Source: Blasia pusilla (lineage: Eukaryota). Taken from it: DNA of 64,000 nucleotides. Below the pieces are notes generated by a model. The model saw nothing but the letters and a program-made list of their open reading frames with translations. It was not told the DNA's origin and made no database searches. Of the stretch, positions 7,507-63,040 are shown in pieces (the stretch's first letter is position 1; the number at the start of each line of letters is the position of its first letter). The stretch lies in NCBI GenBank assembly GCA_050084515.1, contig CM114271.1:11532001-11596000 (forward strand), written 5' to 3'. The position numbers and the translations under genes are program-made.

Positions 7507-7519
7507 CTGCACATCCAAA

Positions 7520-8370: not shown

Positions 8371-8389
8371 AAGTGTTAAAGATACTTAC

Positions 8390-34306: not shown

Positions 34307-40290
<5,984 letters not shown>

Positions 40291-43200
40291 TGTTTACTAT
40301 GTACCTCCTCATCTCCACTAGGAAAGCTTAATTAGTTCTCCTCCGATGGTCCGACCAATATGATTACTTCTTATCACACCTTCACATCAGTGAGTGGTAC
40401 TCCTATGCAATATTCTCTACCTACAAATGTCTTCTCAACTCTCCACTATCAACCACACATGAGGCAAGAGAAGTAGCACTTTAACTTGAAATTCTCTTCA
40501 TGCTTTGAAGAGGATTTTAAAGCCAAATGTACAAAATTTGTACCCTTGAGGAAACCATTGTAGAAGGCAAAAGGTGCCTTTTGCCTTATACAATGGTTTT
40601 CTCACTCAATATATTATACCCAGGGAAGGTGAGTTTTATGCATGTGATCTTTGTACCACTAGTGAACCTAGGATGGCTCATAATGTGTACATGATACCAT
40701 CTTACATCTAGAAAATTCTAGCTATTAATCCCCTTCTAGCTCCTTTCTACAATTGACTCCCGTATTAGCATTATTCAAAAGTACAACGGATTCCACAAGG
40801 GTTTCTTCAACACGACATCACTTATAGACCCCCCTCTAATAGAATGGAACTTAGAATCTACCAGTGTGACTAATCTACAATCCACTATCTCTCGTTTAAC
40901 ATAACTCATGGCCATAAATGGCCTTTATTGGGACTACACATACCTACTTGAACTACCAAATCCGTCTACTGGCCTTGTTTTTCTACCCTCAACGTATTGC
41001 AATGGATGCTATTCTTAAATCATCACAAGATAAGGGCCAGGTAACCCATTGTATGTCTTATGATCCTTACAAGGCAGAACTTAATATGTTACAGGATGTG
41101 ACTTATTCCCTACCCGTACGCACAAGCAATGCTTCTCATATATTGGATAATGATTGCCTATTCTTTAGGAATAAAACTAATTGTAGAGAACCTTTCTTTA
41201 CACACTCATCATGTTCGTCCACTGATCGCGGATTAACCATAGAGATCGGGATATTTCTCTTTCCCTATCTCCAAGGAGTCTTTCAAAGTATTGGATCTTT
41301 CCTAAATTACATGAAATTAAGATCCAAACAACTTTTTATCCCTTTTTCACTTAACAAACCATATCCCCTAGTTATGCACCAATTGTGACATGCTATATCT
41401 CTCTGCTCTACATCTTGTTCTTTTATCCTTAATAGAAATCTAGAAAATTTATGAAGAGCTAAGCCACACAATCCAAAGAAAGACTTACACTACAATTTGT
41501 CGAAACACTCACTCAACCCTCAATTGCCTCAAACTCCAGCTTGGCATCATAGGCACCTGAAAGATCTCAAAGCTATGGTGAGTACATTGAGGATGCCACA
41601 CTTCTTCCTAACTACAATCTACAAGAGGGACAAAGACTGGACACATAGAAGACAAAGTACAAAAGTTCAATAACTCATATATTTGGAGAGATGCATCTGC
41701 AGAGTGTGCACAACTTTTGCACACCAAGTTGCACACATTTCTCACTCAATAGATTATCAGTCATATTCTAGAGTAAGTAATCACATATGAGTTACAATAT
41801 AGGGGCACTCTATACTGGCACATGATTTTTTTGGTTCAACAAAGTGATATCGATAGTGTTACCTCTGAGCTTTGTGCTCATATTCATAGCTTTGCATGTT
41901 CCCCCCCTAGTTTTTGTTTACTCACATGCTACTTGTAGTAGAGCTCATTCAATCCTTGGTGATAACATAACAACTAAAAAAATATACCGATGTTAAGAAG
42001 ATGTATGCATAATTAGGAAAAACCGGCAAAAAACTCAGTGTAGACTAGGTTTTCTTGTTGAGGCGAATATGGTCACAATTCCATTCATCCACCCGCAAAG
42101 TATGCCGTGGACATATTTTAGACCATCCCTCAATAATCGCATCGTTATACCATACCATCCATTAGTTCTATTGCTTTGAAGTGCACACATGAATATACAA
42201 AGAGTCTAAAACATTGATTGGTCCTTCTATCTTATCAAATATGCATTGAAGTCAGAGTTGTGATACCCACTTTTTATGAATTTGGTGCACTTATGTATAT
42301 TTTGGTAGAGAATTAGGGAGAAGTCTTTGTGAATAAAGAACAAAGATCTAGTTTTGTGACAATATGTACATATTGATAAAGGAGGAGAACATTGGAAGGG
42401 TATTAGTAGAATAAATTAAATGGATCTTCGATGAGAAGATGAAGAGTTTTGGAAGAATGAGGATTTGTCTTGGAGAAGTAGAACTTTTGGGTGCATGGAC
42501 TTTGGAATCAAAAAGAAGGCTGGAAAAGTTTAGTAACGAAGAAGGGAATATGAGAAGACTTCTCAAGCTTCTATGTCTATTGAGTTCCCTCGTGTCTTTG
42601 ATGGACAAGAATGTTTTCTCTTTCTTCATTCAGACATGTGGAGGTGTATGCTTGATCTGATTGGGTCCGTAGAGGGAAGGAAGACAGTGAGGGAGATGTA
42701 TGAAATCTCTTAGACAGAGAGTAACCTCCAAGGATAGATGAGTTCTAATATTAGGATGAGTCATCTACTCACTATGATCTAATGAAGGTTCTTTCTTGTT
42801 TACTCACGATTCAAGTCATAAGAATTCATAAAACTAATCCATTGGAGAAGATACCTTGAGGGAAAATACTTTCTACTACTAAAAGAAGTTGTCTTTGTTA
42901 ATTTTATTCTATTGAAAAGAATCTCTGATTCTTGAGTTCTTTCATAAATTATCTCTCTTTTGAAACAACGATAATATTCTTGGGGAATGAATTAGATACT
43001 ACTCGATAAAAAGATTATAATTTTCAAATTCTATGACATTACATAATAGATAAAGAAAGTTTAAGCACCACTAGCGGGGATTACACGCTTATCAATTTTT
43101 CTTAGATTTTGCTGGTGCGGATCGACGGGGGACAGCAGCCGAGTGTAGTGTGCGGTGGGGCGTCGGGTGTACGCGACCGAGGGTGTCGGGAAAGAGCAGG

Positions 43201-46200
43201 AGGCGGCCGGGTCGCGGAAGCGGCCGGAGGTTAGTTAGGGCGCACAGACGGGTGTGGACGGGCGGCGATGGGTGCGGACGGCCCGCCCCCGCCGCCAGCG
43301 CATAGGGAGGCGTGTTGGACGTGGTAGGTGGCCTACATAGTTGGGCAATGAACGTGGTTGGATGGGAACATCGTAGGGCATGGCGTGGTTGAGCGAAGTA
43401 GAAGAAGTGGGTGGGCGTGGACATGGTAGAGTGGGCTTACCTTGGATTTTTTAGGGTTGAGATTTTTTCCGAAAACCTTCATAGTCCATTGGTAGTGGTT
43501 GTTTGTTGCGGATTGGCAGTGAGATGAGTTGTTCGCACCAAAAGTTTGCGGAGGAGAGTGTTTCGACGGAGTGGTTGTGATGGAGACACAAACATTGATG
43601 CCGACGGGAGGTTCAATGTGGTGGTCAAGGAGAGAGTCGTGGTGCAGAGGGTGCCGTACCACATGGAGGAGTGAGTTTTGACGATACGTAGATTGGAGGG
43701 CGTGATCAGGTTACCCATTCGAGTCCCTTTTCCCGCACTTGTCGTGTATGATTGAGAGTGCTGGGTATCGGGTAGTAGCTGGTGCTAGGTGGGTGCAGTG
43801 ATGGTGATGAGTGTAGACTCTTTTCATGTATAGCATGTTGGTGGATATATGGCGGTTGCCAAGTAGGGGTCGCGTGTATGACCCGAGAGAGTGTCTCTAG
43901 GTTAGAAGAGTCAGTTGGGAGGCTCACGGTGAGCGTGAGTGTTGAGTGTGCGTGAGTTTAACATCAATCAGGGGATTGATGTTAGCATAGGTGAGCTAGT
44001 GAGGAGTGTGGGAGACTCTTAGTGAGTATGAGTGCTTGGGCGGGTGAGACAGGGTTGTCATCACGGCGTTCTTCCAGGGTTTGGAAGAACGGGGTAGTGC
44101 GAGTAGTAGTAGTGGAGTGATACGGAGTGGAGTGAGATAGGGAGGGGTTACCAGTGAGGAGCTAACTCGACATCCATCTGTGGCTGGATCGTCATCACTA
44201 GACACTGGGTCTGGTGACGAGATCGTAGACAGAGATGGTATCACTTGGCAGAAGATGGACGACATGGGCCATCGGGGCATGCGTCGTTTCTTGGGTGCAA
44301 TGGGCACCATCGACTTAGATGATTTTATCGAGGAGTTCGACACGTGGTGCGACTTCTAGGAGATACAGAATCCGACACGGTTTAACCCTTTCATGGCATG
44401 AAAGGGGTTGTTCCAGCACTTGGAGGGTCCTCCGATGGATGACTATATGGAGTTTCGATCACTATATTCAATAGAGATCGATGCTTTGAGGATGTATTGG
44501 GCTCCAGGGTATGTGTCCACTAGTGGTCGCGAGGCATATGATGGGATCGTGAGAGGAGAGAGACCCACACCATCAGCCCAGAGACTAGATAGACAGGAGG
44601 GCAGTGAGACAGGCGATGTCGCAAAGACCTCTGGTGGTAGAGGGCCATCTAGCTTCCGTCCCACAGTGGAGTTCTTCCAATAGTTGGGGAAGAGCTACCA
44701 AGGCGTACGCACCGACAAAGTGAAGAGTCTACAGGATTTTTAGCGATGATGGGGTGAGAGTTTGAGAGAGGCATTCAAGCATATGAGGAGGCTGATTATT
44801 GCTACGTATGGAGTGACTGAGGCGCAGTTAGTCCAGTATTGGTACGGGGTTATGGACCAAGAACTATGGAGGAGAGTCCGAGATGCGGTGCTGATTCACA
44901 CAGTGAAGCCCACATTGAAGGTGGTCTTTGAGTTGTCTGAGCGTATTGAGCTCAACATGAGTGAGGAGCAGGTAGTGACCGCTAGATTTTCTTGAGAGTC
45001 GACGGGTCGACGGGTCCACGAGCGATGGTGACCCCACAGGTACCACAGCGAGCACCAGTACCACGGGAGCGGGCTAGTGTGGCCAGAGAGCAGGGCGGGT
45101 ACCGTGAACCTATGAGGCAACGACCCGTACTTACATATGTTGTCCAGGAGGGACTGATGTTGTCTTGCTGGATGTGTAGAGGGGCCCATAGGAAGAGAGA
45201 CTGCACACAATATGGGAGAGGACCACGAGCGCCTGTGATTGCTCAAGAGTCCCAGAGGATGGCCCCACCATAGTGCTAGAGTGACTATTGCCACAGGCCA
45301 TCTATCCCTATGGTCACACTAGGGATAAATGTTATGACCCTCGTCGAGAGGCACGTCCAGAGGTAGGCCGAGGGCTTGGGGGCGGTCTTCTTGGAGGAGG
45401 TCGGGGATTTCTTCTTGGACGTGGTGGTAGAGGACCACCACCAGCCAGAGGAGATGGAGCAAGAGCACCAGAGCCGACACTTCTCTCACGCATCGATTAG
45501 TTGGAGCAGAGGATTTTTGCCATGATGATGATGTAGCTCAGGGAAGGCACGGAACCGCGAGCAGCTAGTGTGGCTCCAGCTTCTACATTTTACCCTGATC
45601 CGGGTGAGGATCTTGCTAGTATGGGGTTTATGTGTAGTGCAACTCATGTTGAGGCAGCTGCAGTGGTGACTCAAGGTGCTGCGAGAGGCACCGAGCCATC
45701 GAGAGGTGGAGTTGAGATTGACCCACCGCAAGGGACTCATGGACGCCACGCCAGGGTTCCACAATCATTCACATTTTCCGAGGCACTACACACACCATCG
45801 ATGGTGCCTCGACAACCAGCGGTGCCTACAGCTCAGGCACTTATGTCGACATCATGAGGAGTTGGAGTGACAACTCCTATGCCGGCTTGAGTGGAGTCAG
45901 TGTCGACCATAGTGTTGGAGGTGGCCACCAGAGTGAGTCAGACTCCACTATTTTCCGCCATAGAGTTGGCGACGTTGGGAGTTGGACCAGCTGAGGTGTT
46001 TTGGCTGGCCGCCACGTTGTGTGAGCGTGGAGAGGTGACTGCTTCTTGTTCAGAGGTAGTTGAGGAGGTGGTGGACTTGCCCTCAGAGCCGGTGCTCAGG
46101 ACGTTCCCCACAGAGTCATGGCATGCGGCGGCGGCGAAGTTGGTAGATATGCCAGTTCGACCGGCCATAGAGCGAATAGTGGTGACACTTGGAGTAGTGT

Positions 46201-46989
46201 TACTAGATAACCGAGCTATAGTATTTCACTTGGTTAGTCCGACATGGATAGTATACCACCCGCAGTGCGTCCTACTTGATTCGGGAGCGCAACCCTTGAT
46301 GTTAGGGAAGGCGGCGTGTTTAGCGTTGGGGTCATGGAAGGCCAACATTGAGACTTGTCCCTTCCAAATGCAGACCTTGATTGGGGTCATGTCACCCATG
46401 TAGTATATGACTTGACAGGAGATAGTTGTCAGAGTCCATCCAGAGCATGCGACGGATATTGCTATGGTGCGCAGACGTGCGAATACGACACCAACTGAGT
46501 CGTACGATGTGTTGGTGGGAAGTATAGTGTTATATCCCCTAGGATTCATCCTTGACTTCTGGGAGGAGACCATTGCTTATCGGCTAGGGAGGCAGTCAGG
46601 TGATGGGCAGATGAGTTAGTTACCGATGCAGTTTGCAGGACGAGGTGGTCGATCACGAGGTGAGTCTGTGACCAGGTTTGCAGCTTTCATAGGTAGTGTT
46701 AGGTGGACAGGAGAGTTGTTGGAGGGGAACGCATATGCGGAGGATGTCCTAGTAGCGAATAGTCCCATGGAGAGACATGCCATGGCGGGTGTCTCTTTCC
46801 ATGTTGGCGAGACCTCTTCACCATTGTGGGGTACGACTCGAGAGCAATAGAGGAGTGTCGATGACCACGTGAGGCATGCGTGGAATCATGCCTTTATCCC
46901 GGAGCAACGAGAGTTAGGTGGCGATCCCACTCTTGGAGTGGGGACGTTAACCCCACTGGATATCACATCTGTTGTGTGGCAGTTTCCAG

Positions 46990-47812
46990 AGGAGGGTGTT
47001 AGATCTCTTCGCAGGGATTAGCACCGGATTGGCTGCAGTATTGCAAGCGGGCATACGGGTGCATCACTACCTTTATGTGGAGAGAGATGAGACTGCGCAA
47101 CAAGTATCATTATGTTACGTGGCGAGATTGGTCCATAGGTATTCTAAGTTGTTGTTGATATTTGCAGTACGGGGATATTAGCATACACTACCCACCGACA
47201 TCTCTTTGGTGGGGGCGTAGGATCTGGATAGAGTTGGCACCATTCATTTGGTGATTGCTGGATGGCCATGTCAGGGTCATTCATCAGCTGGCCGAGGATT
47301 TGGATTGCAGGATCCGAGGTCATGGATGTTTTAGGAGATGCTACGAGTAGTACAACACTTGCAGGAGAGTTAGACATATTCTTCAGCGTACATTTTGGAG
47401 AATGTGCTGTTGTTGGGAGGTACTGAGTCGAGCATACGATGGAGTCCAAAGAGCACCACATCTTATAGTGGACGCTATTTTGGGCTGAGGGCGTCGATCT
47501 CAGGTGGTGACGCGGGATGATAGACCACCTTTGGCGATGGCCAATAGAGTGGGGGAATTGAGGGTAGCCTTACCTATGTTGGTGAGCTTCCCAACATCCC
47601 ATGCCTTTTGTCAGGGAGGGCCATGCATGATTTGGGATAAGGTGACTTGAGCATTAGAGAAGTCTACAGCAGATGAGCGCGAGCGCGCCATGGGGTTTGC
47701 TACAAGTACTACAGCGGTGCCAAGTATGAGTGAGGCATCCCGGAGACAGGTGTTGGGGCAGGCTATTGACTTCAATTGTCTCACATGGATAGTCAGCCTA
47801 GGTATGGCTTAG
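46990..47812 (+). pseudogene. C5-cytosine DNA methyltransferase domain within gypsy pol
   Basis: Motif I VLDLFAGI, II YVERD, IV LVIAGWPCQGHSSAG (about 47250-47290), V GLQDPRS, VI YILENV (about 47390-47406), IX-X ERERAMGF..T..RRQVLGQAID. TAG stops present, and motif VIII appears deleted. Confidence 0.9.
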
Positions 47813-50800
47813 CAGAGATGGATCTGAGTGTCATCCATGAGTTGGACCATTGCCTACAAAGTTTGTACAGGCATTGGCTGGAGGCGGGAAGAGGAGAGAC
47901 AGGCACCCATGGACTTCCTGGGACGTCGTTCGAGCAGAGAGTGCGAAGGCGGCCAGAGTAGCACATGTTCATTTTTTGGATATGGAGCATGGTGTAGGAG
48001 GTCAGAGTGGAGTGGCTATTGCGGAAGTGGCTAGGGTTGCTACATAGCAACCAAAGGCGGAGGTTGCGTCCTCTCCGAGTGAGGTCATGATGGAGACTTG
48101 GGAGCATGTGATAGGTCTCAAATTGATAGGAGGAGAGCAACGGCAAGTTCATAGGTTTTTGAGAGGGCATGTCAGTTGTTTTGCCTTGAGTATGAGAGAC
48201 TTGGGTACGCTGAAGGGTCATGGGATACGGACGGATTGAGTTGGCTAGTGATACGCCGATCTTTCGTCGACCCTAGAGGTATTCTGATATGGAGCAAGCC
48301 TTGATTCAAAGCAGGAGTCAGGACTTGTTGGAGGCAAGACTTGTGGAGTTATCACATGGGGAGTATGCATCTGCCACAGTCATACTAGCAAAGAAGGATA
48401 TGTATGGTAATTGGACGGATAGGCGGATGTGTGGAGATTACCGTCCTATCAACCGACAGACGAGGCCAGATCGGTACGCCATGCCTACTCCTTAGGAGAT
48501 CTTTGATGTGGTAGGGCATGCAAAAATCTTCAATACTTTAGATCTCCATGCAGGCTATCATCAACTTCCTATCGGGTTGGAGGATAGGGAGAAGACATCA
48601 TTCTGGGGGATAGATTGGTTTGGGAGAGATTGCTTGTATCAGTGGCGGTTCTTACCATTTGGGTTGAAGAACGCGCCTGTAGAGTTTTCAGAGAGTGATG
48701 GATAGGATTCTGGCTGGCTTGGATTTTGTACGATGTTACATAGATGATATTTTTATCTTCAGTTCCACGGTTGAGGAGCATGAGCGACACCTGGAGGAGG
48801 TGTTTCAGCAATTTTAGTTACATGGACTGAAGTTACATCCAGGCAAGTGCAGATTCTTTCAAGAGCATATTGAGTACTTGGGACACACCATATACCCAAG
48901 TGGGTTAGGCATTCAACATACAAAGGTGGAGGCTATTGCACAGATTCCACGCCCTACAGATGCGAGTCGAGTCCGAGCGTTTCTTGGATTGGCAAACTTC
49001 TATCGACGGTATGTCAAGGGTTTTAGTGCGATCGTAAAGTCTTTGACCTTGTTGACGAGACTTGATTAGGTTTGGTTGTGGGGAGATGATCAAGAGCGAG
49101 CATTTTAGGAGCTCATGGGCAAGTTGATGTCCTCACCTATTTTACAGAGACCGGTTAGGGGTCACCCATTCCAGTTACAAACGGATTGGAGCATGTTGGG
49201 TCTAGGAGCAGTGCTTACTCAGAGGGATGATGAGGAGAGGGAGTTCGTTGTGGCTTACGCCAGCCGACCAAACAACATTGTAGAGGCAAAGTACAGCTCT
49301 TACAAGGGAGAGTGCTTGGCTACACTGTGGGCCGTGGCACATTTCAGGTGCTATTTATGCGGCAACCCTTTCACACTATTCACTGATCATCAGCCGTTGA
49401 GGTGGTTGATGGAATCCGACAAGCTTACGGGAAAGCTTGTCAGGTGGGCTCTATTACCACAGGAGTATGAGTTTGAGGTGGTTCATAGGCCAGACCGGGT
49501 GAACCAAGATGCGGATGGGTTGAGTCGTAACCCATGTTCGAGTCAGAGAGACGATACAAGAGTTGGATGGCACGGAGAGAGTGATGAGGAGATGGTGCCC
49601 GGTTGGCATGCATCTGCCTATCTTTGTTGGTTGACTATGGTAGGTCAGCCACACGTGATGACTTTAGTGGTGGGGTTGGATAATGAGTCTTTGGATCTAG
49701 AGGTCAGTGAGGAGGCGACAGGTGTCTGTGATATCCATGACGACATGGAGGTTCTGGAGTTCTTGCGCAGTAGCGTCATAGCAAGCACAGCGACTGCTAG
49801 CGAGCGGGATCGGATCCTACAGTGAGCCAGGAGGTTTAGGTGGGAGGGGACTCACATTTTGTGGGTATGGGGAGATGGTAGGATACGAGTGGTACCTCAT
49901 CCTTCTCAACGAGCACGTGTAGTACGACATGCCCAGTAGGCGCGGCTTGCATACTGGGGTAGAGTAGTTTGTGGCCAGATGTATGGTATGTGACAAAGTG
50001 CGAGCATCCTTCAATGCTCCCACTCCGCAATTACATCCTTTGCTGATTATGGGTTTAGGTTATCGGTGGAGTTTAGACTTTGCAGGACCTTTGCCATTGA
50101 CGGGGCGTCATCACAAGTAAGTGTTGGTCATGGTGGAGCATTTCTCCAAGTAGATAGAGTTGGTGGCACTACCAGACAAGGCGAGTGAGGGAACAACTTA
50201 TGCGTTTCTAGATCGTGTGCTTAGTCACTTTGGTGCATCTGCGGAGGTGTTGACTGACCAGGGTACTGAGTTCAAGGGAGAGTTCAAGGCCTTGTGTGAT
50301 CAGACACTGATAGATCACCGCACCACATCCGGAGATCATCCTAAGGCGGATGGGTCGGCGGAGAGAGTAGTACATACGGTGAAGAGAGGATTGCGCAAGT
50401 ATGGCTTGTAGCGAGGACAGTTGAGGGAGTGGAACCTACAGTAGCCATGGTTGGCTATGGGTTATCGCTTTAGTCGACAGGCATCCTAGACGTCATTTTC
50501 ACCATACTTTTTGCTCTTTGGGAGAGAGCCAGATTTACCTGCACCTGTTTGAAGTGACATGGCGGAGGTGTTAGATCTTGATGATCCAGATATGTGGGTA
50601 CAAGCGTGTTCTCAGAGGGCGGGGATTTTTCGTAGAGTTATGCCTATGGCCTTTGAGAACTTAGCTATTGCTCAGCATAGAGATACAATGAGATACGTGA
50701 CCATTTGTGGAGGAGATTATCGTCCAAGGATTTGGAGGTTTCATCCAGGAGATTGCGTGTATTTACAATAGGCGGCACCTACGATGCTAGATGTCACCGC

Positions 50801-50971
50801 AGGGCGCACGATCCTACGTGTGCGCGAGGTATTATTGACCGCAATCCTCATGTTGGAGGGACGAGATGGTATGGTTTGGAAGGATCATATGCAAAATTGT
50901 GCGCCATGTCATCTTCCGAACGTAGATGGGATATTGGATCCGACCTTGGTAGTGGTACTTGTAGGCTTGAG

Positions 50972-51112
50972 GTGTATGTTGTGCAGATCTGCGAGGGGTG
51001 CAGCCACCATGTTGGTATGTGATGATTTTTCTTGAGGGTGGCATATGTCATGTCTGAACCCCCCTTTGATGTAGTTCCCACAAGAAAATGGATGTGTCCG
51101 AGATGTGTATAG
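50972..51112 (+). pseudogene. PHD finger at the integrase C-terminus
   Basis: CMLC..ATMLVCDDFS*GWHMSCLNPPL, frameshift, VVPTRKWMCPRC. C4HC3 pattern with one C replaced by F. Confidence 0.85.
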
Positions 51113-51190
51113 GGTAGTAGGACATATCAGAGAGATGTGATATTTTCTATGTGGAGTTGGGGGAATCCAACCGCCAGCTAGGGGGATGGT

Positions 51191-51929
51191 TGTGTGATCT
51201 CCATATATATGTATGAGTTTATTTTTGTACATGTGTGGATCGACCCGTGTGTGGGGAAGATTGGTGTTGTGTGGTGTAGATGTAACCAACGATGTATGTT
51301 GTTTAGCGATATGTATGCGCACGACAACTGTCACATCTAAGTAGCCGATAGGCCGAGATTTATCAAGGATAGGAGCCAACGGACTATCTTGAGTGTAACT
51401 TTGTCCCACATTGTCGGATGAGGTTGAGGATAGGTCCATTGTGTCAGGAACGTCGTTTCTAGCAACTTTTCTGTTGAGGTTTTTCACACGTGGGTGACTT
51501 GTTGACAAGGTCACCCGCCCCTGGTAACATGTGCACGTAGGTTACCAAGGGGATAGCTATTTCTAGGGAAAGAGCCTTTTGGCTCTTCCCAACCCTATAT
51601 AAGAGAGGAAGATGGCTCTCCTAAGCCATATTTCTCATGTTGGGCCATTGGAGCACCTCTCTTGTATGTGTGTGAGATAGGACTAGGGTGCTAGCATCCG
51701 GATTCCTTGATACCACAGGGTGGACGAGGCTCGATATGCCGATGTAGATTGAGGAGTGGAGTTTTAGGCCGGGTGTGCCATTTTTACATCTCCATTTTTG
51801 TTGTGTGATCTCCATGTATATGTATGAGTTGATTTTTGTACATGTGTGGATTGATCCGTGTGTGGGGAAGATCAGTGTTGTGTGGTGTAGATGTGACCAG
51901 CGATGTATGTTGTGTAGCGATATGTATGC
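51191..51929 (+). repeat. Probable 3' LTR with roughly 130-bp terminal direct repeats
   Basis: Preceded by polypurine tract agggggatgg and starts TG. 51190-51318 is repeated at 51801-51929. TATA-like ccctatataag at about 51593. Confidence 0.65.
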
Positions 51930-52993
51930 CCATAAGAGAGCAAACAATCCCAAAGCTATACACTCAAGAGCGACACGAGAGACTCAAGATGTGAAGTAGA
52001 AGGTGATGAACCCTTGAAAGTCCCTCCTCTTTATATATTCACAAGGGATCCACAAGAGTACGAAATAGGGCTAATCTTATCTTGTGCCACATGGCTTCCT
52101 CTCAAGGCTCAGCCAATCATATTTTGACACAAGTAGATTACCTCTTATCTCTTCCAAAATATCCTCTTTTACTCCCTTCATATCTTCCAAACTACCCCAC
52201 CAACCCTAGCCACCAACCAAGACTTCTTTTGCTTTTGTTTTATTAAAGCACCAACCCCACTACTTTACTTTTCTAATCCCATATTTTATTTATTATATCT
52301 TTTCCTAAAGTTGGGCCCGCGCAAATGAGTCACCCTAAAGAGGTTTAAACATGGGAATTTCATTTTCCTAGGTTAATTTACTTAATACTAATAAAACTCT
52401 CTCTAATACTTAATAATAGAGGATTTTATATAGCGGATGATTTTACTATACGATATTCATCCCCTCCAAACTTGCACATCGGAGAATGTGTAGGTTTGGA
52501 GGATATGAGTATTGTATAGTGTGCCAAAAATATCGAGACTTCTTGCTATTTTACTCACACTTATTTTTGTTGTGCCTCTAGACACATTGAACCGAAATCA
52601 AGAAATCACTCACATCTACGGAAAATCTTGACCCTTTTTCCTGCAATGGGCAGCTTGAGAATTGTGCCATCTAGTTCGCGTAGTTTGTAAGTGGCATTGT
52701 TAAAAGCAAAGACTACAACGTATGGACCAAACCAACGACGTGCAAACTTCTTAATTGTACTATGTTGGTTGTCGAGGATGTTAAAACACCAACCCCACTA
52801 CTTTGCTTTTCTAATCCCATCTTTTATGTATTATCTCTTTTTCTAAAGTTGGGCCCGCGCAAATGAGTCACCCTAAAGAGGTTTAAACATGGGAATTTCA
52901 TTTTCCTAGGCTAATTTACTTAATACTAATAAAACTCTCTCTAACACTTAATGATAGAGGAGTTTACATAGCGGATGATTTTACTATACGACA
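51930..52993 (-). mobile_element. Internally deleted Ty3/gypsy: partial 5' LTR, integrase tail, PPT, 3' LTR
   Basis: About 205-bp direct repeat at 52245-52455 and 52784-52993 (minus strand starts TGTCGTATAG). Between them KKFARRWFGPYVVVFAFNNATYKLRELDG (GPY/F tail) and PPT ggaggggatgaa. Confidence 0.8.
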
Positions 52994-53409
52994 ACGTCCT
53001 CCGTACCGTGCACCCTAACATCCTTGGAAACGAAGATTGTTCCAATTTGGAGAAGAAATCAGAGTGAGAGGAAATTTTCATTTACTTATATGTAAGATTC
53101 CATAACTTGGGGTCGGATTATTTCTGATTGATGAAGGGCCGCTAGATGACTGCCACATGTGAGTTTCATATAATTATCCATTTGCAGATAATTCCACTGG
53201 GAGGAGAATGAGAATGAGAATGAGAATGTTTAATTTATAGTGAATAGTGACCATTATTCTCCTAACATAAATCAACTGACAAGTTGTTGGTTGGTAGGTG
53301 AGATTATGTGACGCTCTGTGCACCAAGGAAAGTGCAATACAAATAAATTTCTCTGGGGATTGATCACGTTGAAGGTTTCTGGATTGCCTCAAGTTAGCCA
53401 TTCACAAGG

Positions 53410-56400
53410 TAAGTTCAACCCGTCGGATTCCAACAAGTTGCAACCCATCGCAATCCGAATGGTTGCAATCTTTCCGAATCCGAATGGTTGTAAATCGTCG
53501 GACTTCGACTAGTTTCAACCTGTCAGATTCCGACGGGTTGCAAAGCGACAAAATCCGTTTGCTTGCAAATCTTCAGAATCTAACTATCTACCACCCAGCT
53601 AAGTGTGACTTCCACCCCGTCGAAGTCCGACGGGTTGCATGGGGTCTTGGGAAGTCCTGTCAATGACTAGAACTTTGCCACCTTTGTCCTTGCAACCCCT
53701 CAGAGATGTACAGGTTGCACGTCGTGCAAACCGTCAGAGTCCGTTGGATTGCACATGGTTCTAGGTCGGTACCCCCTGCCAGTGCAACCGGTATGGTTCC
53801 GTTAGGTTGCACGATGGGTGCTTCTTCCTTGCAACCCGCCGGAGTCGGGTTGCATAAGGACCTCGGATGGATTTCCAATGGCAAGTGAACTGTGCAACCC
53901 GTCGAAGCCCGACGGGTTGCTAGGGGACCTCAACTTGATTTCCCTTGTCGAGGGAAGCGTGCAACCTGTCGAAGACCCGGGTTGCACGGGGATCTCGTCT
54001 TGATGTCCCACGATGAGGGAAGCATGCAACGCGACGGAGACCAACAGGTTGCTCGAGAACCTCGCTTGATGTCCCACAACGAGGGAAGCTTGCAACCCAT
54101 CAAAGTCCGATAGGTTGCAGGTTCAACGAGTCCAATGGGTTGCACGTCCGATGAGTCTGACGGGTTGCACGTCCGGCGAGTCCGACAGGTTGCACGTTTC
54201 CCATGTGCAAAGCACCGTAACGGCTGATGTCGCCATCGGTGCAATAGTTCCCATGAACCAATGGTAAGCTCAACGACTCAAAAAGTATATAAGTCATAAT
54301 TTTTTCTCATTTCCCTTTTTCAATCTGCGATTTCACTTGGAGCTCTTCCTCCACCGACAAGTCCTCCCAATAGTTGAGGTCCCCGCATCCGCTGAACACA
54401 TCGGTTACTCAGAGCCCTTTGTTGGAAGGTAACGACGCTCCAAGACACGATGCTTTGAGAGTTGGGTTTAGGCAAGCCGCTCCGCTGGAAGGTAACGATA
54501 CTCCAAGAAACGACGCTATGAGAGTTGGGTTTAGGCACTCGATCGAAGATCCAAGAGTTTAGCCAGTCGATCAGATTTCTGGAGTGCATAGGTGTAGATA
54601 ACATTGATGAGGAAGAAAACACAAGCAATGAAGGTTGGGAGCGTCACTCCCAAGTCCATTAGAACTCCTGCATTGCCATCGCTTGGCGGTGGAAATTAGG
54701 CAACAAGAAATAGAGGATAGGGAGAGGGAAGCAGAAATGCACAAGCATGAGGTTGTGGCAAAGCTTGCTCTGGAAGAGCTCCCAAGGTAGAACGCGGAGG
54801 CCGAGGCATCTAAGGCCTTGAAGAAAAGAGTTTCGGACGAGAAGCGAGAGAAGAAGCGTCTAGACGTCTCCATCAAGAGAGCAGAATTGGCAAAAGCAGG
54901 GAGGGAAAAAGCTATCGCCGTGGAAGAAAACCCCGCCCATCCAACGGACAATGTTGAGATGGAGGATATGTCCCTGATGAGATCTGGGGACACAATGAAC
55001 TTAAAATTGGTTAAGGAAACCGCAAAAGTTCAAGAGACGGACGAGGAGGTCATGAGGATAGCAAGTGTGGAGATGGTGGACATCTGTGAAGAAGCTGGAG
55101 AAGAGTCGTCATCATCATTGAGCCCGCTGGAAGAAATTGACCTCTATCGCATCAATGAATTTCCTGTGGACTTGCCACCTGCTGTTCGAGAGCAGCTGGC
55201 CGACATCAACACCAACCCAATTTTCGAGCGGGTAAGTAGACAAGGGCATATATGAAATTGCATTCTCAATTCCTTTGTAAATCCGCAAAATCTAAAAAAG
55301 TAGCTTATTGGCATTCCTCGCCATTGTGCCAGGTTGTTAAGCAGATGTCAGTGGTGGACGGTCACAAGTCCCCAAGAATTTCACTTTTTTGACTGCAAAA
55401 AATGGAGTACGTCCGCGAAATTCAGTCGGACGAGGACATCTCAAAGCTGAAGCAGTCGGTTGCGACAACATCCTATATCAACAACTTCCCTCCATTCTAT
55501 GTTTGGCCTTATGATGAACATGGAATGCAGGCTCTGGTGACGGAAGAAGACTTGGAGGCCTTAGACCCATTCTGGAGGATTAGAGACGAGGAATTCATAA
55601 GAGCTATTGAAGGAACCCAATACAGCTAGATGCGGAACCTCTACTTCTTCATCTGAGATGGGAACCACATGTATATGGCCTAGTCACAGTTTGTTGAGGA
55701 GCGCTCGAATTCATTGGAGGCGCATTTCTGCGTGAGGGCAATCGTCCTCCATCCATTTCCACATCACATGGCAACGATGCAGATACGTAAGTTCAAATTT
55801 CTCTCAATAATTTTTGCTTGCTTCAACCCGTCGGAGTCTGACGGGTTGCAAAAATGTTCAGATTGTAGATTGGCATGAATCATAGGAGTCGATAGTCACA
55901 ATCCTTTTTGACGTTGCATGGGAAATTTGGATATAGGGACTTTGACGGATTGAAATCAGGTCTTCCATAAGATTTCGCTTGGCAATCTTGCAACCCGTCG
56001 GTCTCCGACAAGTTGCGAAATGAGAAATTGGTAGCCAATTTTTTGGTTGAATCCGGGCTACTGTAATCCGTCGAAGTCCGACGGGTTGCGAAATGACTTT
56101 GCTTTTGAGTGAGGTTTCTGGATGACGCCTATGTTCAGCAACCTGTTCGAGTCCGACGGGTTGAACAATGGTCTTGTTTACAAATCATCGGAGGTCTAAA
56201 AGCAACCCGTCGGACTCCAACGGGTTGCCAAAGGTAAAGTAACCACCCAATTTTTTGGCACTTTTGGCCTAAAAGAAACCCGTCGGACTCCGATGGGTTG
56301 CATTTTCCCCAAAATTTCTTGCTACTTGGTGATTATTTCACCTTTTGCAACTCGTCGAACACTGACATGTTGCTTTTAGGCCTATGATGACAAGACCATT

Positions 56401-56699: not shown

Positions 56700-59600
56700 C
56701 TTCATTCTTGGGAGTCACCAAACCAGTGATTCAAGAGTTAAGGAAGATTGGGAGCTTGCCCAACCATGCGCCGGTACAGGAGTTCATGGAGGTCCTTAGG
56801 AAAATGCGAAGCATTGCTGTCGAGACTCAAATATAGAGGAAAATCAATGAGTCAATGGAAATATAGAATCGTACGTAGGAGAAGGAGATCAAAGAGCTTA
56901 GGAAGGCTCTTTGCCGGGCTGAAGGAGAAGTGGTAGAAGCCCGGTGTGAATTGCGCAATGCCCGGCAATGGGAGAGCTTGGAAATCGACATCAAGCATGG
57001 AGCATATCACCTCTTTGCGTAATTACAACAGTCTAAGCTCCACATAGAGAAGTTGCAAGAGCGGATCGATCTTCTCCAGGCTTGTCTTTAGAGATGTGGG
57101 AGACTGCGAAGAAAGGGAAGTTGATTATATATTAGCAACAGACGAACACTAATTTGGTATCCCAATGGAGCTAAGCTGCACCAAAGATAGCAGTGTTGGA
57201 GGCCGATTAGAAACTTAGGGTAGAGGTACGCGAAGAACCAGAAGAGGCCCAAGATCTAATCAACAAGGTAATCTAGAATTTTGAAGCCCAAATCACAAAG
57301 GATCTGGAGTATATCGACCAGCACTAGAAGAGGCAGTTTGAGCAGCATATTGCTGCATTACTTGAGGTGGCAGAACCACCCATAGCACCTTTTGCACCTT
57401 TGGAGGTTAGAGTGCAGAACAAAGTATTAGGTTCTTAGAAGATAGTGGCACGGTGGAGAGAGAGGATGAAGAACACAATCCCAAATCTTGTCAACCGACC
57501 CTCGACAATTCACGGCTGACCTCCTCTTGATGTAGAAATTATAGAATTACCAGATGATAGGAGTCCTTAGGAACATCATGGCAGTAGAGTAGAACCAAGA
57601 AGAGTGTTCGCCGGGATGGCTCACATTTGAGTGAGAGGGTATGTAGTGCCCACGTTTTTGAAATTTTGATGGAAAGAGCATTTTTTGTACAGAAGTTTTC
57701 CTTGAGCGACGACTATAGACTCAATATCGAAAGTAAAGAGTCTTACTTTACTGAAATTGTGTGAAAAACTTGACTAACAGAACTCCGATGAGAGTACACA
57801 AAATGTTAGAAGATTAAGGAGTGTCTTGGAAGAGTGAGAATTATGTAAAAATAGGAAAAGAAGGTAGAAGAGGAAGCATGGGTGCTTCGCAAGGAAGACC
57901 GCAGTAAGAATAGTATAAAAGACTGTCAATGAAGACTGGAAAAAAGCTTCTTTGTAAAGAAGACTGAAGGTAGTCTTTGTGCAAAGGCTGGGTACAAAAA
58001 AGAAAGAGCGAAGACCCAAGGGCAAAGACTAAGAACTCTAAGAAGGAAGAGGAAGAAGTAGAAGAAGTCAAAGAGTCTTCACAAAGCGGAAAGGTGTATT
58101 AAGAATAGGAATAGAAAGATAGAGAATGCTTTGAAGAAAATTGATTGAAAGAAAGTAAAAAGGAGGACTCTTTGCAGCGACAGAAGGATAAGAGTTTTCG
58201 CAAAGATAAGACTACAAAGATTGCAAAGAGCGCGAAGGTTGTGAAGACCGAAATGTCGCGGCGGTTTTGGAAGCCGAAAATGGAGCGGCACAGCAGTTTA
58301 AAAAGAAGCGGAACAGAATTGCCAGGGCAACTAACTACCTTGGGAAGATGGAGGGTTGGGAATTTGAATGGAGAAGGTTAGGATTAGCAGTTAGAATTCT
58401 AGATTAGAATAGGACGATCAATCATAAATTGTAAGAGACTATTTAAAGAATAAATTAAAAGAAGAAGCGATCATTCCCTTGTGTCTTGAATTCCCAAGTA
58501 CTATTGGTTAGCATCAGTTCCTTGTATCTTGAGTTTACCAGTAGTCTTGGTGGATTGTGCAAGGAATTCTATGGGGATGATCCAGTGAAGAGTCTTACAT
58601 TTGTGAAGCTTGTAATACTTTCTAGTTCTTTCCACTCTTTGATGCAGAAGAAGAGTCTTCTCTCATGCTTTCTCATGTGCGGAGTTGAATGTAGATCTTA
58701 TTGGGTTGTAGTGTAGATGAGAGTTGAGTCTTGTATTTTCCGAATTCTATAAGATAATCAAGAAAAGCGTAGGAAAGTTTTTAGATAGTGAGTAACCTGC
58801 CATGACAGATTGAGTTCTGAAAGTAGGTTGAGCCGCCATTCTTGAGGTCTCTTTGAGGTCTTCGTTGGTTGTTTGTTATTCAAGATTCAAAAGAGTCTTT
58901 GTCTGCACTTGAGAAGAGTCTTTTCCAAAGGGGGAAGAAAATCCTTTTATTCTTTTGTACTTGTAAGGACAGTGTCGTTGTAGTTAGCAAAAGCAAATAG
59001 AGAGGCATTAGTGGAGGATCTTCTAGAGTCTTTCCAAGACTCTTAAAGAAGTGTGCCATTCAGTGGTATGAGGGGATAGAAGCGAAACACCTGGAAACTT
59101 GGAAAGCCCTACTTAAGGTGTTCCTTCATGAGTTTCGAGACTTGGAATTTGATGATCACTTACTTACAAAGCTTCGTGATCTCAGTAGGAGGAAGAAAGA
59201 GACTCTGAGAGAGTACACTCAAAGATTTTGCAGCTTGGTCGGCAACCTGAAGCACACCACTATGTCATAGTTAATGGATTGGTATGTGTCTGGTTTATCG
59301 AAGGAAATGGATCGTTACTGTCGTAGAGGGCAACGTGACTCATTAGTAGCCGTCATCGCCTCTGCCAAAGCTTACAAGGCCTTGGAGCAGTCTAGGAGAA
59401 CGCGGAAGAAGAGACATCACAGGAAGCGGACAAGCTCTTCATCAGAGGAGTCTTTGTCTTCTTCCAACTCTTCGGATACCTCATCCGACAGCACTAGCAG
59501 CAAAGACTCAGAGTTTGAGGAAGACTCCAAGGGCAAGAAGAAGAAGAAAGAAAGACGCACAAAAAGGTCTTCGTCCTCAGGAAAAGGGTGTAAGGACCAT

Positions 59601-62600
59601 AGCGCAAAGACAGAGAGCCGCAAGTCTGTGAGTCCCACCCGTAAGACTAAGAAGGATGGGGAGAAGTCCGCCATTAGTGAGTTGGCAAAGCAAATGGCCG
59701 AACTAAAGGTACACTTGGCGGCCCAAAAAGATCCTGGAAGAAGGCCTGATCTTATGCGGCCTTACATATGGTGGAGCGCTTGTGGGACTCATGGGCATAT
59801 GGTACCAGAGTGCCTGCTTCAATGGGATTTACGTTGGATACTAGAAGAACCCTCAAGGGAGGAGGGATGGTATGAGCCATATCAGTGGGAAGGATGCTAC
59901 GTGGTTCAGATAGTTCCCGGGGCTAATACTCTTCACAATTGGATTCCCAAATACGTACCGCCTGATTTTGGAGAGCAGAGGCCTCTACGACAAATCATGG
60001 GATCCGCAACATTCACCTCATCAATCAAGAGGAATTTCTATTATAATTGTGGGGCAATCGATCACTGGGCAAAACATTGTCCAAATCCAAAGAGACGAGT
60101 AGGCTTGAATCTCTTGTGTGGTAATGGCAAGAAGGGAGGACACACTGCGGTGGAGTGCAAGGAGCCTCAAGTTCCTAGGATCTTGGTCAAATATGTAACC
60201 ACCCCACAGGCACCAACCGAAGCCAAGAATGATGTTAATGTGCAACTAGTATGTGTAGAAGATATCACTTCACCAAGACAGCCAAGGAAGGTTACCATTA
60301 AGGAAGAAGAACCTGCAAGGAAGATCAAGGAAGAGCCCTCAGACTGGCCCTCAGACATCCTCAACGAGGTCTTTGCAATGGAAACTAGGTCAAAGACTAA
60401 AAAGACCGCAAATGCAAAGACCCCACAGTCGTCATCTTTACGAAGTATCCCGGCTACGAAGAAAGCAGTCGAGACGTTTTGAGCAGAGAAGGCTATTCTG
60501 AAAGGTGATGTGGATCGGATGTTTGATCGTAATCATCGGAAGTACTTCCACCAAGAGGTGGAGGAGTAGATCTGCAACAAGTCCATGAAGAACGAGCAAG
60601 TGGAGTCTTCGCGCAAGGATCCTCACACAAGCAAAAAGAACCAAAGGTGGAGACCTCGATGGCTTCCCCTTTGGTGATGGAAGCCAATGACTTGTTGAAG
60701 GATTTGGAGGCCAGTCTAGCAAATATCTCCCTATTGCAGCTACTTATGGATAATCCCATTCATGGGAAGATTCTACAACAATGGAAGGCTGGGCGTAAGA
60801 AGAACGTAGGAACAAAGAAGCTCCCCGTGGTGAATCTGTTCCGCATAAAAGTTGAAGACCTTGGTGCGCCAGAAGTGGAAGTCAAAATTGAAGGGCATAC
60901 CATCAAGAAGGTCCCTATAGATTCTGGAAGTGGGATCAATATCATGATAGAGCAAATCGCTCATGCTTTGGGGTACACTAAGTATGAACCCACTGATAAG
61001 TAATTACGCTTTGCAGACCAGTCTTGTAAGCAACCTTTGGGGTAGCTTACCAAGATCCCCACAATGATAAGAGGAGTGCTATTTCTATTGGACTATCTTG
61101 TCCTTCAGCCTTTGACGATCACAGGTTACCCCCTACTCATCGGAAGACCGTGGCTCTATGGGGCTCAGGTTAACACGGATTGGGAGAGACAAAGATTCAC
61201 TTTCCAAGCACTGTACAGTACTCCAAAGAGGTTGGTGAAGTTGTCTTGGAAGTCTCTGCCTTCTCAAGGAGAGACACCTGCTGTGGATGAGGAGTATACC
61301 TCGGATCAAGACTTGGCAGCTGACAAGGAGTCCTCATCCTATGTGTGCTATCTGGAATATTATGAGAATAGATGAAGAGTACCTAGAGCTAAAAGAGAGT
61401 AAGTCATTTCCAAGAGAAGAGCGGGCTAGGCTCACTGCCTACCAATTCATAGAGAAGATGGTGCAGGAGAAAGACTACCAAGAAGTCCTTATCACTGACA
61501 CTAAGGCTTTGCATCTATCCACAGATTTGTCTGCGTCTGAACTTTCACAATATAAAACTTTGCTTTGAAGTACCTTGACGTGTTTTCCTACACCATGGAT
61601 GAGATGAAAGGAGTGTCAGCCAAGTATGGAGAGCATAGAATTGATTTACAGCCTGGAGCATCCCCTATAAGGATGAGTCAATATAGGTTGAATCCCAAGT
61701 ATTCGTTAGTGGTTAAGGATGAGATTGACAAGTGGTTGGAAGCAGAAGTCATATGTCTTGTGCTCAATAGTGAATGGGTGTCTCCCATAGTTATTATTCC
61801 AAAGAAATAGTAGGGGAAGATCAGGGTGTGTGAAGACTACAAGAAACTTAATGTAGCCACCCTGAAGGACCATCACCCACTACCCTTTACCGATACTATA
61901 TTAGATAAAGTGGCCGGTCATGAACATTATACGCTCTTGGATGGATGTTCAAGTTACAATCAAGTCTCTATTAGAGAAAAGGACCGGGCCCTGACTACCT
62001 TTCCTACGGATTGGGGCACTTTTGCCTATTGGATGATGCCTTTTGGACTATGCAACGCCCCAGCCACTTTCCAAAGAATGATGATTTCTATCTTTCAGGA
62101 ATACTTGCAAAGATTCATAGAGATCTTCCTGGATGAATTTTATGTCTTCAGTGTGCCATCCGAGCATTTGCAGAAGTTGGAGCTAAGCTTGGCTTAGTGC
62201 AGAGAAGTGCAGATGTCTTTGCACCTGGAGAAGTCTTACATTGTAATGAAGGAGGGTATCCTATTGGGGCATTGAGTGTCTTCACGTGGTATCGAAGTAG
62301 ATAAGGCTAAGGTGGAGATAATTTCAGAGTTGGAAGCACCCACGAGTCTTTGTGAGCTAAGAGGATTCTTGCCGCATGTGGGGTACTATCGCCAGTTCAT
62401 TAAAGATTACGCACTAAAGGCAAAGCCTTTAACTATCCTACTGCAGAAGACCAAGGAGTGGGAGTGGTCTCCAACTTGTCAAGCTGCATTCCAGGAGTTG
62501 AAGCAGGCGCTAATAACAACTCCAGTGCTTCGCCCTCCTGATTGGTCGAAGACGTTCCTGGTGTATGTCGACACCTCTTCGTTTGCAATTGGAGTAGTAC

Positions 62601-63040
62601 TAAGTCAGTTGGATGAGAAAAAAAAAGGATTACCCCGTCTACTATGCACGTCGGTAACTCTCAATTGCGAAGCAAAAGTACACGACTACGGAGAGAAAAG
62701 CCTTAGGAATGGTCTTTGCCTATAAGAAGTTTCGACATTACTTGCTGGGGTATCCGTTTGTCTTTCATGTCGACCATTTTGTGCTTCGTGCCTTAGTGAT
62801 CAAAGCGGAGTTGTCTGGGAGGATTGCTAGGTGAATGTTGTTGTTCCAAGAGTTCACCTTTGATGTAGTAACAAGAGCGGGGAAGATCCATACCAACACG
62901 GACTTCCTGTCGCGCTTGAGGGTGCCCATGACCAATCTCAAAAAGGCCCTGGAAGACAACTTTCCGGATGAAGATCTGTTCTTGGTGAGCAAAGAGATCT
63001 TGCAGGGGGAGGTGGTTGCAGCGACAAATTGGAGGGCGTG
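56700..63040 (+). mobile_element. Ty3/gypsy relic: leader/LTR-like region, gag with CCHC knuckles, PR, RT, RNaseH; integrase missing
   Basis: CGTHGHMVPEC, CGAIDHWAKHC, GHTAVEC (59274-60482). PIDSGSGINIM. SEWVSPIVIIPKK, MPFGLCNAPATFQR, FLDEF. VYVDTSSFAIGVVLSQ. 5' boundary uncertain. Confidence 0.85.

Follow-up and report, generated by a model that had tools for sequence, protein, structure and literature searches.

The closest described system to the element reported here is KnitGypsy-Dnmt3 of Klebsormidium nitens, a gypsy-type element whose polyprotein carries a non-rearranged DNMT3-type domain, whose repeats are given in the main text as 'the same as that of a DIRS retrotransposon', and whose methyltransferase has a Ka/Ks of < 0.2 (de Mendoza et al., 2018; PMC5890265). 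The same text describes two retrotransposons with a C5 methyltransferase from Symbiodinium, SymbioDIRS-Dnmt3 and SymbioLINE-Dnmt, the former having a DNMT3-type domain that methylated CG de novo in yeast. It sets the Klebsormidium capture 'in the K. nitens lineage', and its survey of 96 genomes represented non-seed land plants by Physcomitrella and Selaginella only, with Marchantia and Sphagnum not included; in the passages of later papers that cite this work, the wording is 'streptophytes'. In this study we analysed 64 000 nt of DNA from Blasia pusilla (GenBank assembly GCA_050084515.1, contig CM114271.1, positions 11 532 001–11 596 000, forward strand; hereafter the window), in which a broken DNMT3-type C5 cytosine methyltransferase (DNMT) domain lies at 46996–47818 on the plus strand, inside a gypsy-type polyprotein. 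An earlier, sequence-only reading of the window had taken this for a gypsy-type element with its own C5 methyltransferase between protease and reverse transcriptase (RT); our results support that reading and make it a property of a family. We assign a probability of about 0.8 to the view that the DNMT3-type domain is an integral part of a retrotransposon family with gypsy proteins, together with the mechanism proposed below.

Cytosine methylation is the main route by which plants silence transposons, and a transposon that keeps a de novo methyltransferase under purifying selection therefore presents a paradox, one that since 2018 has been confined to two hosts that are hard to handle, Symbiodinium and Klebsormidium. 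As close relatives of the present element occur in Marchantia polymorpha, for which mutants, methylomes and transformation exist, it becomes testable whether the enzyme methylates the element's complementary DNA (cDNA), whether it helps or restrains the element, and whether the PHD finger of the family picks the insertion site. There is also a warning for annotation, in that many bryophyte gene models labelled 'DNA (cytosine-5)-methyltransferase' are transposon open reading frames (ORFs) and not host epigenetic genes.

The methyltransferase domain in the window

A Pfam scan with stops read as X, the check that the sequence-only reading had itself proposed, returned PF00145 (DNA_methylase) in the frame starting at 46900 (E-value 5.1e-9; 36.5 bits, the curated gathering cut-off being 22 bits), and no methylase match in the other two frames from 46900. 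Using alignment to intact relatives, we were able to place motif I (DLFAGISTG, 47002–47028), motif IV (AGWPCQGHS, 47257–47283, Cys codon at 47269–47271) and motif VI (ENV, 47398–47406) in frame 1, and motif IX (ERERAMGF, 47675–47698) and motif X (RRQVLGQAID, 47741–47770) in frame 2, all on the plus strand. These surviving motifs stand in canonical order with the catalytic Cys intact, as had been claimed, and the domain is flanked on the same strand by the DSG of a protease (46278–46286) and by an RVT_1 match (48418–48892), again in the order previously read. At position 47012 the window has C, and 2068 of 2156 source-organism DNA reads have G, which restores the DLFGGI of relatives. The N-terminal half of the domain is 67 % identical (tblastn) to the relatives P0005 and P0073.

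The damage had been described as TAG stops and a deletion. The deletion is present and five of the seven in-frame stops are indeed TAG (47179, 47218, 47332, 47371 and 47810); the remaining two, at 47486 and 47648, are TGA. About 45 codons have been lost, with a +1 frame change at ~47420–47430, between ENV and the next conserved block, and the missing stretch is where relatives have motif VIII (GSRAHRxRLWWTN). The full catalytic set (I, the PC of IV, the ENV of VI, VIII, IX and X) is complete in the family and, with VIII gone, incomplete in the window copy.

The domain is a feature of the family

Among 672 candidate proteins, 62 matched the N-terminal half of the window DNMT at an E-value ≤ 1e-3, with best identities of 65–71 %; as 62 proteins match this half with E-values of 4e-52 to 4e-15, a chance origin of the domain is excluded. 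All 21 matches that carry a species name are from bryophytes (16 from Marchantia polymorpha, three from Calypogeia fissa and two from Sphagnum). At ~60–70 % identity, the window DNMT aligns collinearly with proteins of liverworts (Marchantia, Calypogeia) and a moss (Sphagnum), and it is to liverwort and moss proteins that both the DNMT and the RT–RNase H are most closely related; kinship of transposons thereby supports a land-plant, most likely bryophyte, host, though only indirectly. Three Marchantia proteins of gag–protease–DNMT type (P0005, P0012 and P0030) are collinear with window positions 44255–47933, and two others (P0015 and P0027) hold DNMT, RVT_1 and RNase H, in that order, in a single chain collinear with 45903–49861. 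All but one of 16 relatives searched match PF00145. A search of metagenome contigs gave 80 loci, 32 of them at least 9 kb long; in 29 of these 32 a gag–protease–DNMT match is followed ~110 nt on by a match to RT, RNase H, integrase and PHD finger, and the other three stop at the contig end.

Raw reads of the source organism were mapped to 41000–54000 of the window at ≥ 80 % likeness. DNA depth was 0.6–1.05 over the flank (41000–42301), 960–1330 over gag and protease, 1035–1170 in the DNMT bins and 1440–2550 from RT to integrase. Since the depth of the DNMT matches that of gag and protease, the DNMT part is as abundant as the rest of ORF1. By order of magnitude, the family is present in the source genome in about a thousand copies or fragments, a ratio that is only rough because the flank depth is below 1.

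Within the window itself, a segment full of stops and with a deletion is what a passenger fragment might look like, and we therefore weighed the view that it is a private accident, i.e. a piece of a host DNMT3 gene or pseudogene inserted or captured between protease and RT. Against this stand the recurrence of the domain at this position in proteins of Marchantia, Calypogeia and Sphagnum and in metagenome loci, its single uninterrupted frame with gag and protease in the intact locus L037, the equality of its read depth with that of gag and protease, and the equal decay of the remainder of the element; a private accident is scarcely credible. The sequence-only reading had named two situations that would tell against it. 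The first, that other members lack the domain, is contradicted by P0015, P0027, L037 and the 29 long loci, and the second, an independent insertion, by the read depths. The methyltransferase is confirmed as a built-in feature of the family and not a private insertion.

A neighbouring gypsy element at 59271–64000 (+), with a gag carrying a CCHC knuckle, a protease ORF and RT/RNase H, gave no methyltransferase match between protease and RT in tblastn searches with the relatives, and it thus serves as an internal control for ordinary gypsy elements. Another fragment of the present family lies at 10830–12094 (−) and comprises gag and the start of the next region (47–51 % amino acid identity to residues 9–235 of P0005/P0012). 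As a possible case of a DNMT-less member it is uninformative, as it ends inside gag–protease, before the protease and DNMT are reached.

In three stranded RNA runs, element reads had almost all their first mates on the minus strand, which in most library types denotes sense RNA; depth was 5–16 over ORF1 and 30–110 over ORF2. Most of these reads are < 90 % like the window copy, and hence it is the family that is transcribed, the locus itself not demonstrably so.

Organization of intact relatives

Locus L037 has one open frame of 1369 aa, an uninterrupted gag–protease–DNMT in which Pfam matched the protease and the DNMT, and another of 1047 aa with RT, RNase H, integrase and PHD finger. The two share one reading frame with a single TAG between them, and loci L042 and L001 are arranged alike. 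Intact members thus consist of ORF1, encoding Gag (CCHC), protease and DNMT, an in-frame stop, and ORF2, encoding RT, RNase H, DDE integrase and PHD finger.

At the boundary between the two ORFs, a stop followed by CAR YYN was found at the homologous place in 48 of 57 loci (35 TAG, 13 TAA), with another context in eight and no stop in one; the commonest reading is stop-CAA-CCC. The window copy has an in-frame TAG followed by CAA CCA at 48045–48053 (+), a candidate readthrough site by homology with the stop of the relatives. We take this context to be akin to tobamovirus-type readthrough. The plant readthrough consensus is given as stop-CARYYA, in which the C that follows the stop matters most (PMC5397192). 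Judged by its context, the conserved in-frame stop between DNMT and RT has the appearance of a programmed readthrough site of a plant retroelement. Given such a stop between the ORFs, we infer that Gag–protease–DNMT would be abundant and that RT–RNase H–integrase–PHD would come from occasional readthrough.

The ends of the family are not those of an ordinary gypsy element. Three relatives with both ends present (L055, L061 and L036) have split direct repeats in the layout A1 ... B1-A2-B2, repeat A measuring 307–342 nt and repeat B 113–117 nt. Similarity among the three starts exactly at A1 and ends exactly at B2, over 9127–9206 bp; all three have the ends TGTCATG...CATGACA (TG..CA, inverted) and are surrounded by 4-bp target duplications (CATA, AAGG and TCTC). 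The inner junction, B1, 2 nt and A2, is a right end joined to a left end. The order protease, RT, RNase H and DDE integrase, found both in the window and in intact L037, is that of Ty3/gypsy, and to this extent the class named by the sequence-only reading stands; as to the ends it does not, since in place of two direct terminal long terminal repeats (LTRs) the window and these three loci carry the split repeats, and the family lacks ordinary LTRs. Nor is this a DIRS element by its integrase, as Pfam scans of the window and relatives found PF00665 (rve) and PF17921 and no phage-integrase domain.

Kind of methyltransferase and selection on it

A phmmer search of all solved chains with a Marchantia protein placed DNMT3A, DNMT3B and DNMT3C at the top (E-values 1.7e-8 to 2e-5), with HaeIII (1e-3), DRM (0.003–0.3) and DNMT2 (0.018–0.09) at lower ranks. 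An AlphaFold model of P0075, the closest intact domain, made with a 14-sequence alignment, has a core pLDDT of 70–88 and a pTM of 0.68, its mean pLDDT of 60 being lowered by disordered tails. In a Foldseek search of the PDB with this model, all 36 matches listed from the best 50 ranks are DNMT3A, DNMT3B or DNMT3C (E-values 8e-16 to 2e-13), with TM scores of 0.72–0.77 to DNMT3 chains the size of a methyltransferase domain. By both phmmer and Foldseek, the nearest enzymes appear to be those of DNMT3 type, ahead of DNMT1/CMT, DRM, DNMT2 and bacterial ones, and a Dcm-like identity was rejected on the same grounds. A search of the ESM Atlas with the Marchantia domain found generic methylase clusters only.

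The host DNMT3A, DNMT3B and DNMT3C catalytic domains, the best matches in both sequence and fold, have the same motif order at an identity of only ~21–22 %. Motif IV reads PCQ in the element and PCN in the aligned DNMT3A chains and, unlike in host DNMT3, a scan of 16 relatives (E-value ≤ 0.001) detected neither a PWWP nor an ADD domain.

Fourteen aligned domains, which are 42–65 % identical save for one near-identical pair, are invariant at WPCQG, YI.ENVP, G..H..WT and E.E..MGF. An intact DNMT was found in seven of 80 loci and an intact RT–RNase H in five of 54, and the DNMT thus decays no faster than RT–RNase H. For the seven loci with an intact DNMT we calculated pairwise ratios of non-synonymous to synonymous substitution rates (dN/dS). 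These were 0.13 for L037–L038 (dS 0.26), 0.11 and 0.09 at dS ~1.5, and 0.15–0.17 at dS ~1.8, the last near saturation; for RT–RNase H, L037–L042 gave 0.04. The sequence comparisons indicate that the catalytic residues are conserved under purifying selection in intact relatives. These same residues bear on the view that the domain is a pseudo-enzyme, no longer catalytic and retained for a structural or binding role: across 14 diverged members there is little or no variation in the Cys of PCQ, ENV, the arginine/histidine stretch of motif VIII and motif I, which binds S-adenosylmethionine, and a pseudo-enzyme is very improbable.

Neighbouring domains raise another question, namely whether the substrate is RNA, either the genomic RNA of the element or its primer tRNA. 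In the bryophyte branch the domain is fused to the RNA-binding, particle-forming half of the element (Gag with its CCHC knuckle), the possibility was raised for SymbioLINE-Dnmt, and no DNA methylation was seen when the KnitGypsy domain was assayed in yeast (de Mendoza et al., 2018; PMC5890265). The nearest structures, however, are the DNA enzymes DNMT3A, DNMT3B and DNMT3C (E-value 1.7e-8), with the tRNA enzyme DNMT2 at only 0.018–0.09, and in the sister branch the domain sits between RNase H and integrase and not beside Gag. We regard RNA methylation as improbable.

Proposed mechanism

PF00628 (PHD) was matched in intact relatives with E-values of 1e-9 to 1e-11, and the solved structures nearest to the L037 finger are those of CHD4, PHF12, PHF21A, KDM5A/B, ATXR5, KAT6A/DPF3, UHRF1 and AIRE (E-values 8e-17 to 1e-8). 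Most of these fingers recognize a histone H3 tail whose K4 is unmethylated or whose N-terminus is unmodified. By analogy, we offer as a lead that the PHD finger of the family may be a reader of the unmodified H3 tail.

In the mechanism that we propose, the DNMT of intact copies is predicted to be catalytically active and would be made in excess along with Gag and protease, the RT–integrase part being made only through occasional readthrough of the stop. The enzyme would travel with the particle and methylate the new cDNA or the fresh insertion, and the PHD finger would direct the integrase to chromatin in which the H3 tail is unmodified. For the step in which the domain acts by cDNA or self-methylation, we put the odds somewhat below even, the remainder falling to the alternatives weighed here and to roles that have not occurred to us. 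As the window copy is dead, cDNA pre-methylation can apply to intact relatives only, and these, from their sequences, may be able to pre-methylate their own cDNA.

Alternatively, the enzyme might act on the host and not on the element's own cDNA, methylating the surroundings of the insertion or sites elsewhere, or pairing with or titrating host de novo factors. A DNMT3 fold with conserved catalytic motifs would suit any DNA, of host or element alike, copies numbering about a thousand and transcribed in sense would be a large extra source of enzyme for the host, and effects on the host epigenome are discussed by de Mendoza et al. (2018; PMC5890265). The placement of the domain in the Gag–protease polyprotein suggests instead that it works in or near the particle and not free in the nucleus. 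We find action on the host unlikely, and equally so the variant with titration of host factors, in which the element would shape or blunt its own silencing.

Several observations weigh against an integral DNMT that acts on the element's own DNA in a living, transcribed family. The window copy itself cannot work, having 37–39 stops, no motif VIII and no A1. Most relatives are also dead, a stop-free frame of at least 500 aa being present in only six of 80 loci. In the only published assay on the nearest known element, the domain of KnitGypsy-Dnmt3 gave no methylation in yeast, a result that its authors call inconclusive (de Mendoza et al., 2018; PMC5890265). With regard to selection, the young pair L003–L024 has a dN/dS of 0.89 at a dS of 0.058, with no selection visible, as is expected from decay after insertion, and of the dS values above 1.4, most are near saturation. 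As for readthrough, the strict form TAG-CARYYA was found in only four of 57 junctions and the window, most having stop-CAACCC and 13 having TAA. RNA coverage of ORF1 is about six times below that of ORF2, the RNA reads, mostly < 90 % like the window, are not assignable to intact copies, and the copy-number figure depends on a flank depth of only ~0.9. Lastly, in a repeat screen of 14 loci we found the full layout in three, the A pair alone in two, the B pair alone in one and neither pair in eight, five of which (L034, L048, L027, L026 and L074) have ample flanks; the split-repeat layout is thus shown for one subfamily only.

Wider family and comparison with known systems

A profile search with the domain returned 9845 cluster representatives at an E-value ≤ 1e-3, 2052 at 1e-10 and 477 at 1e-30, the best 150 matches scoring 233–467 bits. 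Domain scans of 24 long representatives showed the order RT–RNase H–DNMT–integrase(–PHD) in 21, the window's order in two and the DNMT only in one. The named members with the first order are chlorophytes (Scenedesmus, Haematococcus, Chromochloris and Monoraphidium); one match in the wider family is labelled as a bacterial metagenome-assembled genome. Two chlorophyte-type relatives have additional domains, P0170 a Tudor domain of PTM/DIR17-like type behind its PHD finger and P0229 a G-patch between DNMT and integrase.

A tree of 45 domains, hand-picked from 247 full-length ones, plus the window separates the two architectures, with a Shimodaira–Hasegawa-like approximate likelihood ratio test (SH-aLRT) support of 98 on each side, and places the window DNMT within an 18-row clade (SH-aLRT 99) that holds all Marchantia, Calypogeia and Sphagnum rows. 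The chlorophyte elements have the same DNMT family, integrase–PHD tail and gypsy-type RT/RNase H as the bryophyte branch, and their DNMTs form its sister clade; they differ in having the DNMT between RNase H and integrase, where the bryophyte branch has it before RT. A tree of 42 hand-picked RT–RNase H rows keeps each DNMT-bearing architecture and ordinary gypsy apart and, being unrooted, does not bear on a sister relationship of the two DNMT-bearing groups.

The kind of element is already known from KnitGypsy-Dnmt3. The two share the DNMT3-type domain in a gypsy-type polyprotein, repeats that are split and direct here too, and purifying selection on the DNMT (dN/dS of 0.09–0.17 here). They differ in host, K. 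nitens in the one case and liverworts and mosses in the other, and in abundance, KnitGypsy-Dnmt3 having few copies in K. nitens and the present family about a thousandfold representation in the source genome. The main text is silent on the domain order, a leaky stop or a PHD finger in KnitGypsy-Dnmt3 (PMC5890265). No protein named as K. nitens was present among 62, 59 and 104 matches, in searches limited by shared words.

Among the other systems, the Symbiodinium elements (de Mendoza et al., 2018; PMC5890265) share the possession of a C5 methyltransferase, but are a tyrosine-recombinase DIRS element and a LINE in another host kingdom; the integrase of the present family is of DDE type (PF00665). 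Gypsy-7a_cRei of Chlamydomonas likewise has a histone-reader finger on its pol/integrase part, a presumed insertion guide; this PHD precedes the integrase and the description lists no methyltransferase, whereas here the PHD is at the integrase end and a DNMT is present (PMC9940879). Chromoviruses have a chromodomain at the integrase end, where Pfam scans of the present family found a PHD finger (PF00628) and no chromodomain. The EpiLTRs of Cymbomonas and Euglena are LTR-type elements that, as here, combine a cytosine methyltransferase with a chromatin reader; unlike here, a sister relationship to DNMT4 is reported for their DNMT, which has an adenine methyltransferase and a chromodomain joined to it (bioRxiv 10.64898/2026.05.21.726589).

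Within the literature covered, the element diagrams in the supplement of PMC5890265 lying outside it, we found no retrotransposon with a DNMT described from any land plant, bryophytes included. As such, land-plant hosts, including a genetic model, and the high copy number and transcription of such elements appear to be new. The same appears true of the DNMT on the Gag–protease side of a conserved leaky-stop context, of the integrase–PHD tail and TG..CA ends with 4-bp duplications, and of the large chlorophyte sister group with another domain order.

These comparisons also allow a broader scenario, which we regard as possible and, on balance, doubtful. There would be one ancient lineage in green plants, reaching from chlorophytes through, probably, Klebsormidium to liverworts and mosses, that pairs a DNMT3 writer with a PHD reader of unmodified H3. 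Among land plants, a shift of the writer to the Gag–protease side of a leaky stop would have let it be produced and packaged in bulk and methylate the cDNA before or at integration. The capture would date from long before land plants, and the lineage would still be transcribed, at about 1000 copies, and be present in Marchantia polymorpha. If this is true, the pairing of writer and reader mirrors functions of host DNMT3 enzymes, and the capture did not take place 'in the K. nitens lineage' as published.

The element copy in the window

The window copy, at ~43604–51937 (+), is an old, 5'-truncated and non-functional insertion. At its left, genomic depth rises from ~23 (bin 43170–43603) to ~1020 (bin 43604–44037), and this jump at ~43604 marks the start of a 5' untranslated remainder (43604–44254, +). 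In intact relatives A1 begins ~1477 nt 5' of gag, and accordingly A1 and ~500 nt expected upstream of 43604 are missing. No A2-like match was found upstream of the element, either by self-BLAST of the whole window or by sensitive BLAST of 42200–44400 against 50900–53700, and the left-end 10-mer of the family, used to locate A1, had 62 matches in the window against 69 expected by chance, none of them useful. From the absence of A1 and the depth step, the copy has been truncated at its 5' end or has had that part replaced.

The coding remnants, all on the plus strand, begin with gag at 44255–45000 and a CCHC-like knuckle (CWMCRGAHRKRDC) at 45163–45222, located by tblastn with Marchantia P0005; identity is 56 % to residues 1–247 and 50 % to residues 301–320, with five stops, and zf-CCHC was detected in the relatives P0073 and L001. 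The aspartic protease remnant (46140–46745, with LLDSGAQ) was located by tblastn with residues 701–900 of P0045, the Asp_protease_2 matches in relatives being under the Pfam cut-off. Downstream of the DNMT and the boundary stop, the RT remnant is in two frames (48217–48892; PF00078, 24.1 and 53 bits) and shows 58–69 % identity to P0015/P0027 by tblastn. RNase H follows at 49079–49825 (PF17917, E-value 3.5e-29; PF17919, E-value 1.1e-26), part of which, 49109–49825 (238 aa), is the sole long open frame remaining in the copy. The DDE integrase remnant lies at 49941–50700 with its rve core at 50061–50330 (PF00665, E-value 1.2e-10); tblastn gave 63–64 % identity to P0119/P0114 and 10 stops across 49944–51089. 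At the C-terminus of the integrase is a PHD finger with two stops (50973–51107; PF00628, E-value 0.0039). Across the whole coding region, tblastn with the relatives showed 37–39 premature stops and at least eight frame changes; it is therefore the entire copy, not the DNMT alone, that is long dead.

At the right, repeat B1 (51189–51326, +), recognized as a direct repeat with B2, ends in ...CGCACGACA, the right-end motif of the family. Two nucleotides on is the 466-nt repeat A2 (51329–51794, +), which begins with the left-end motif TGTCA and was delimited by comparison with the junctions of L055, L061 and L036; across 51326–51333 the junction thus reads ...CGCACGACA, AC, TGTCA.... Repeat B2 (51795–51937, +) is the 3' end of the element, as similarity between loci ends at B2 in the relatives. 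The 138-nt B1 and B2 repeats, on either side of A2, are 92–93 % alike. No LTR pair was found in the window by repeat search or by the BLAST comparisons above, as follows from the split-repeat layout and the missing A1.

With regard to base composition, CpG observed/expected is 0.28–0.70 across L001, L037, L042 and the window copy (44255–51100), i.e. depleted even in open copies, and the coding strand has an excess of G over C of +0.11 to +0.23 in the same set. Strand-specific deamination as the cause of the skew (+0.23) was rejected, as the intact relatives have +0.11 to +0.23; because they share it, the skew belongs to the family as such and does not indicate decay.

Neighbouring sequences

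In the window as a whole only transposons were seen (LINE, Mutator-like and gypsy). Adjoining the 3' end of the element, 51938–53150 is another repeat, containing a 211-nt direct pair (52243–52453 and 52781–52991, 95 %). It has RNA reads of the opposite strand at a depth of 36–162, with many molecules starting at 52195, and both DNA and RNA reads contain joints that go back 470–474 nt, suggesting a tandem unit of variable number. A LINE-like element at 35833–38199 (+) has open frames of 349 and 438 aa (RVT_1, E-value 1.4e-30), and its 3' part (37848–39398) recurs at 1–1527 with 90 % identity; a unit of ~1 kb is duplicated at 38404–39241 and 39423–40237 (84 %). Several open pieces of a Mutator-like (MULE-type) DNA transposase lie at 22791–25350 (+; PF10551, E-value 4.8e-12). 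At 5454–7520 (−) there is an uninterrupted frame of 688 aa that matched no Pfam family and gave no usable ESM Atlas match. Finally, two copies of a conserved peptide stretch, SDEDI.KLKQS..T.SY...FPPFYV.PYDEHG.QALVTEEDLE.LD.FWR.RD..F, with no Pfam match, were found at 8327–8797 (−) and 55393–55629 (+), and probably represent another repeat family.

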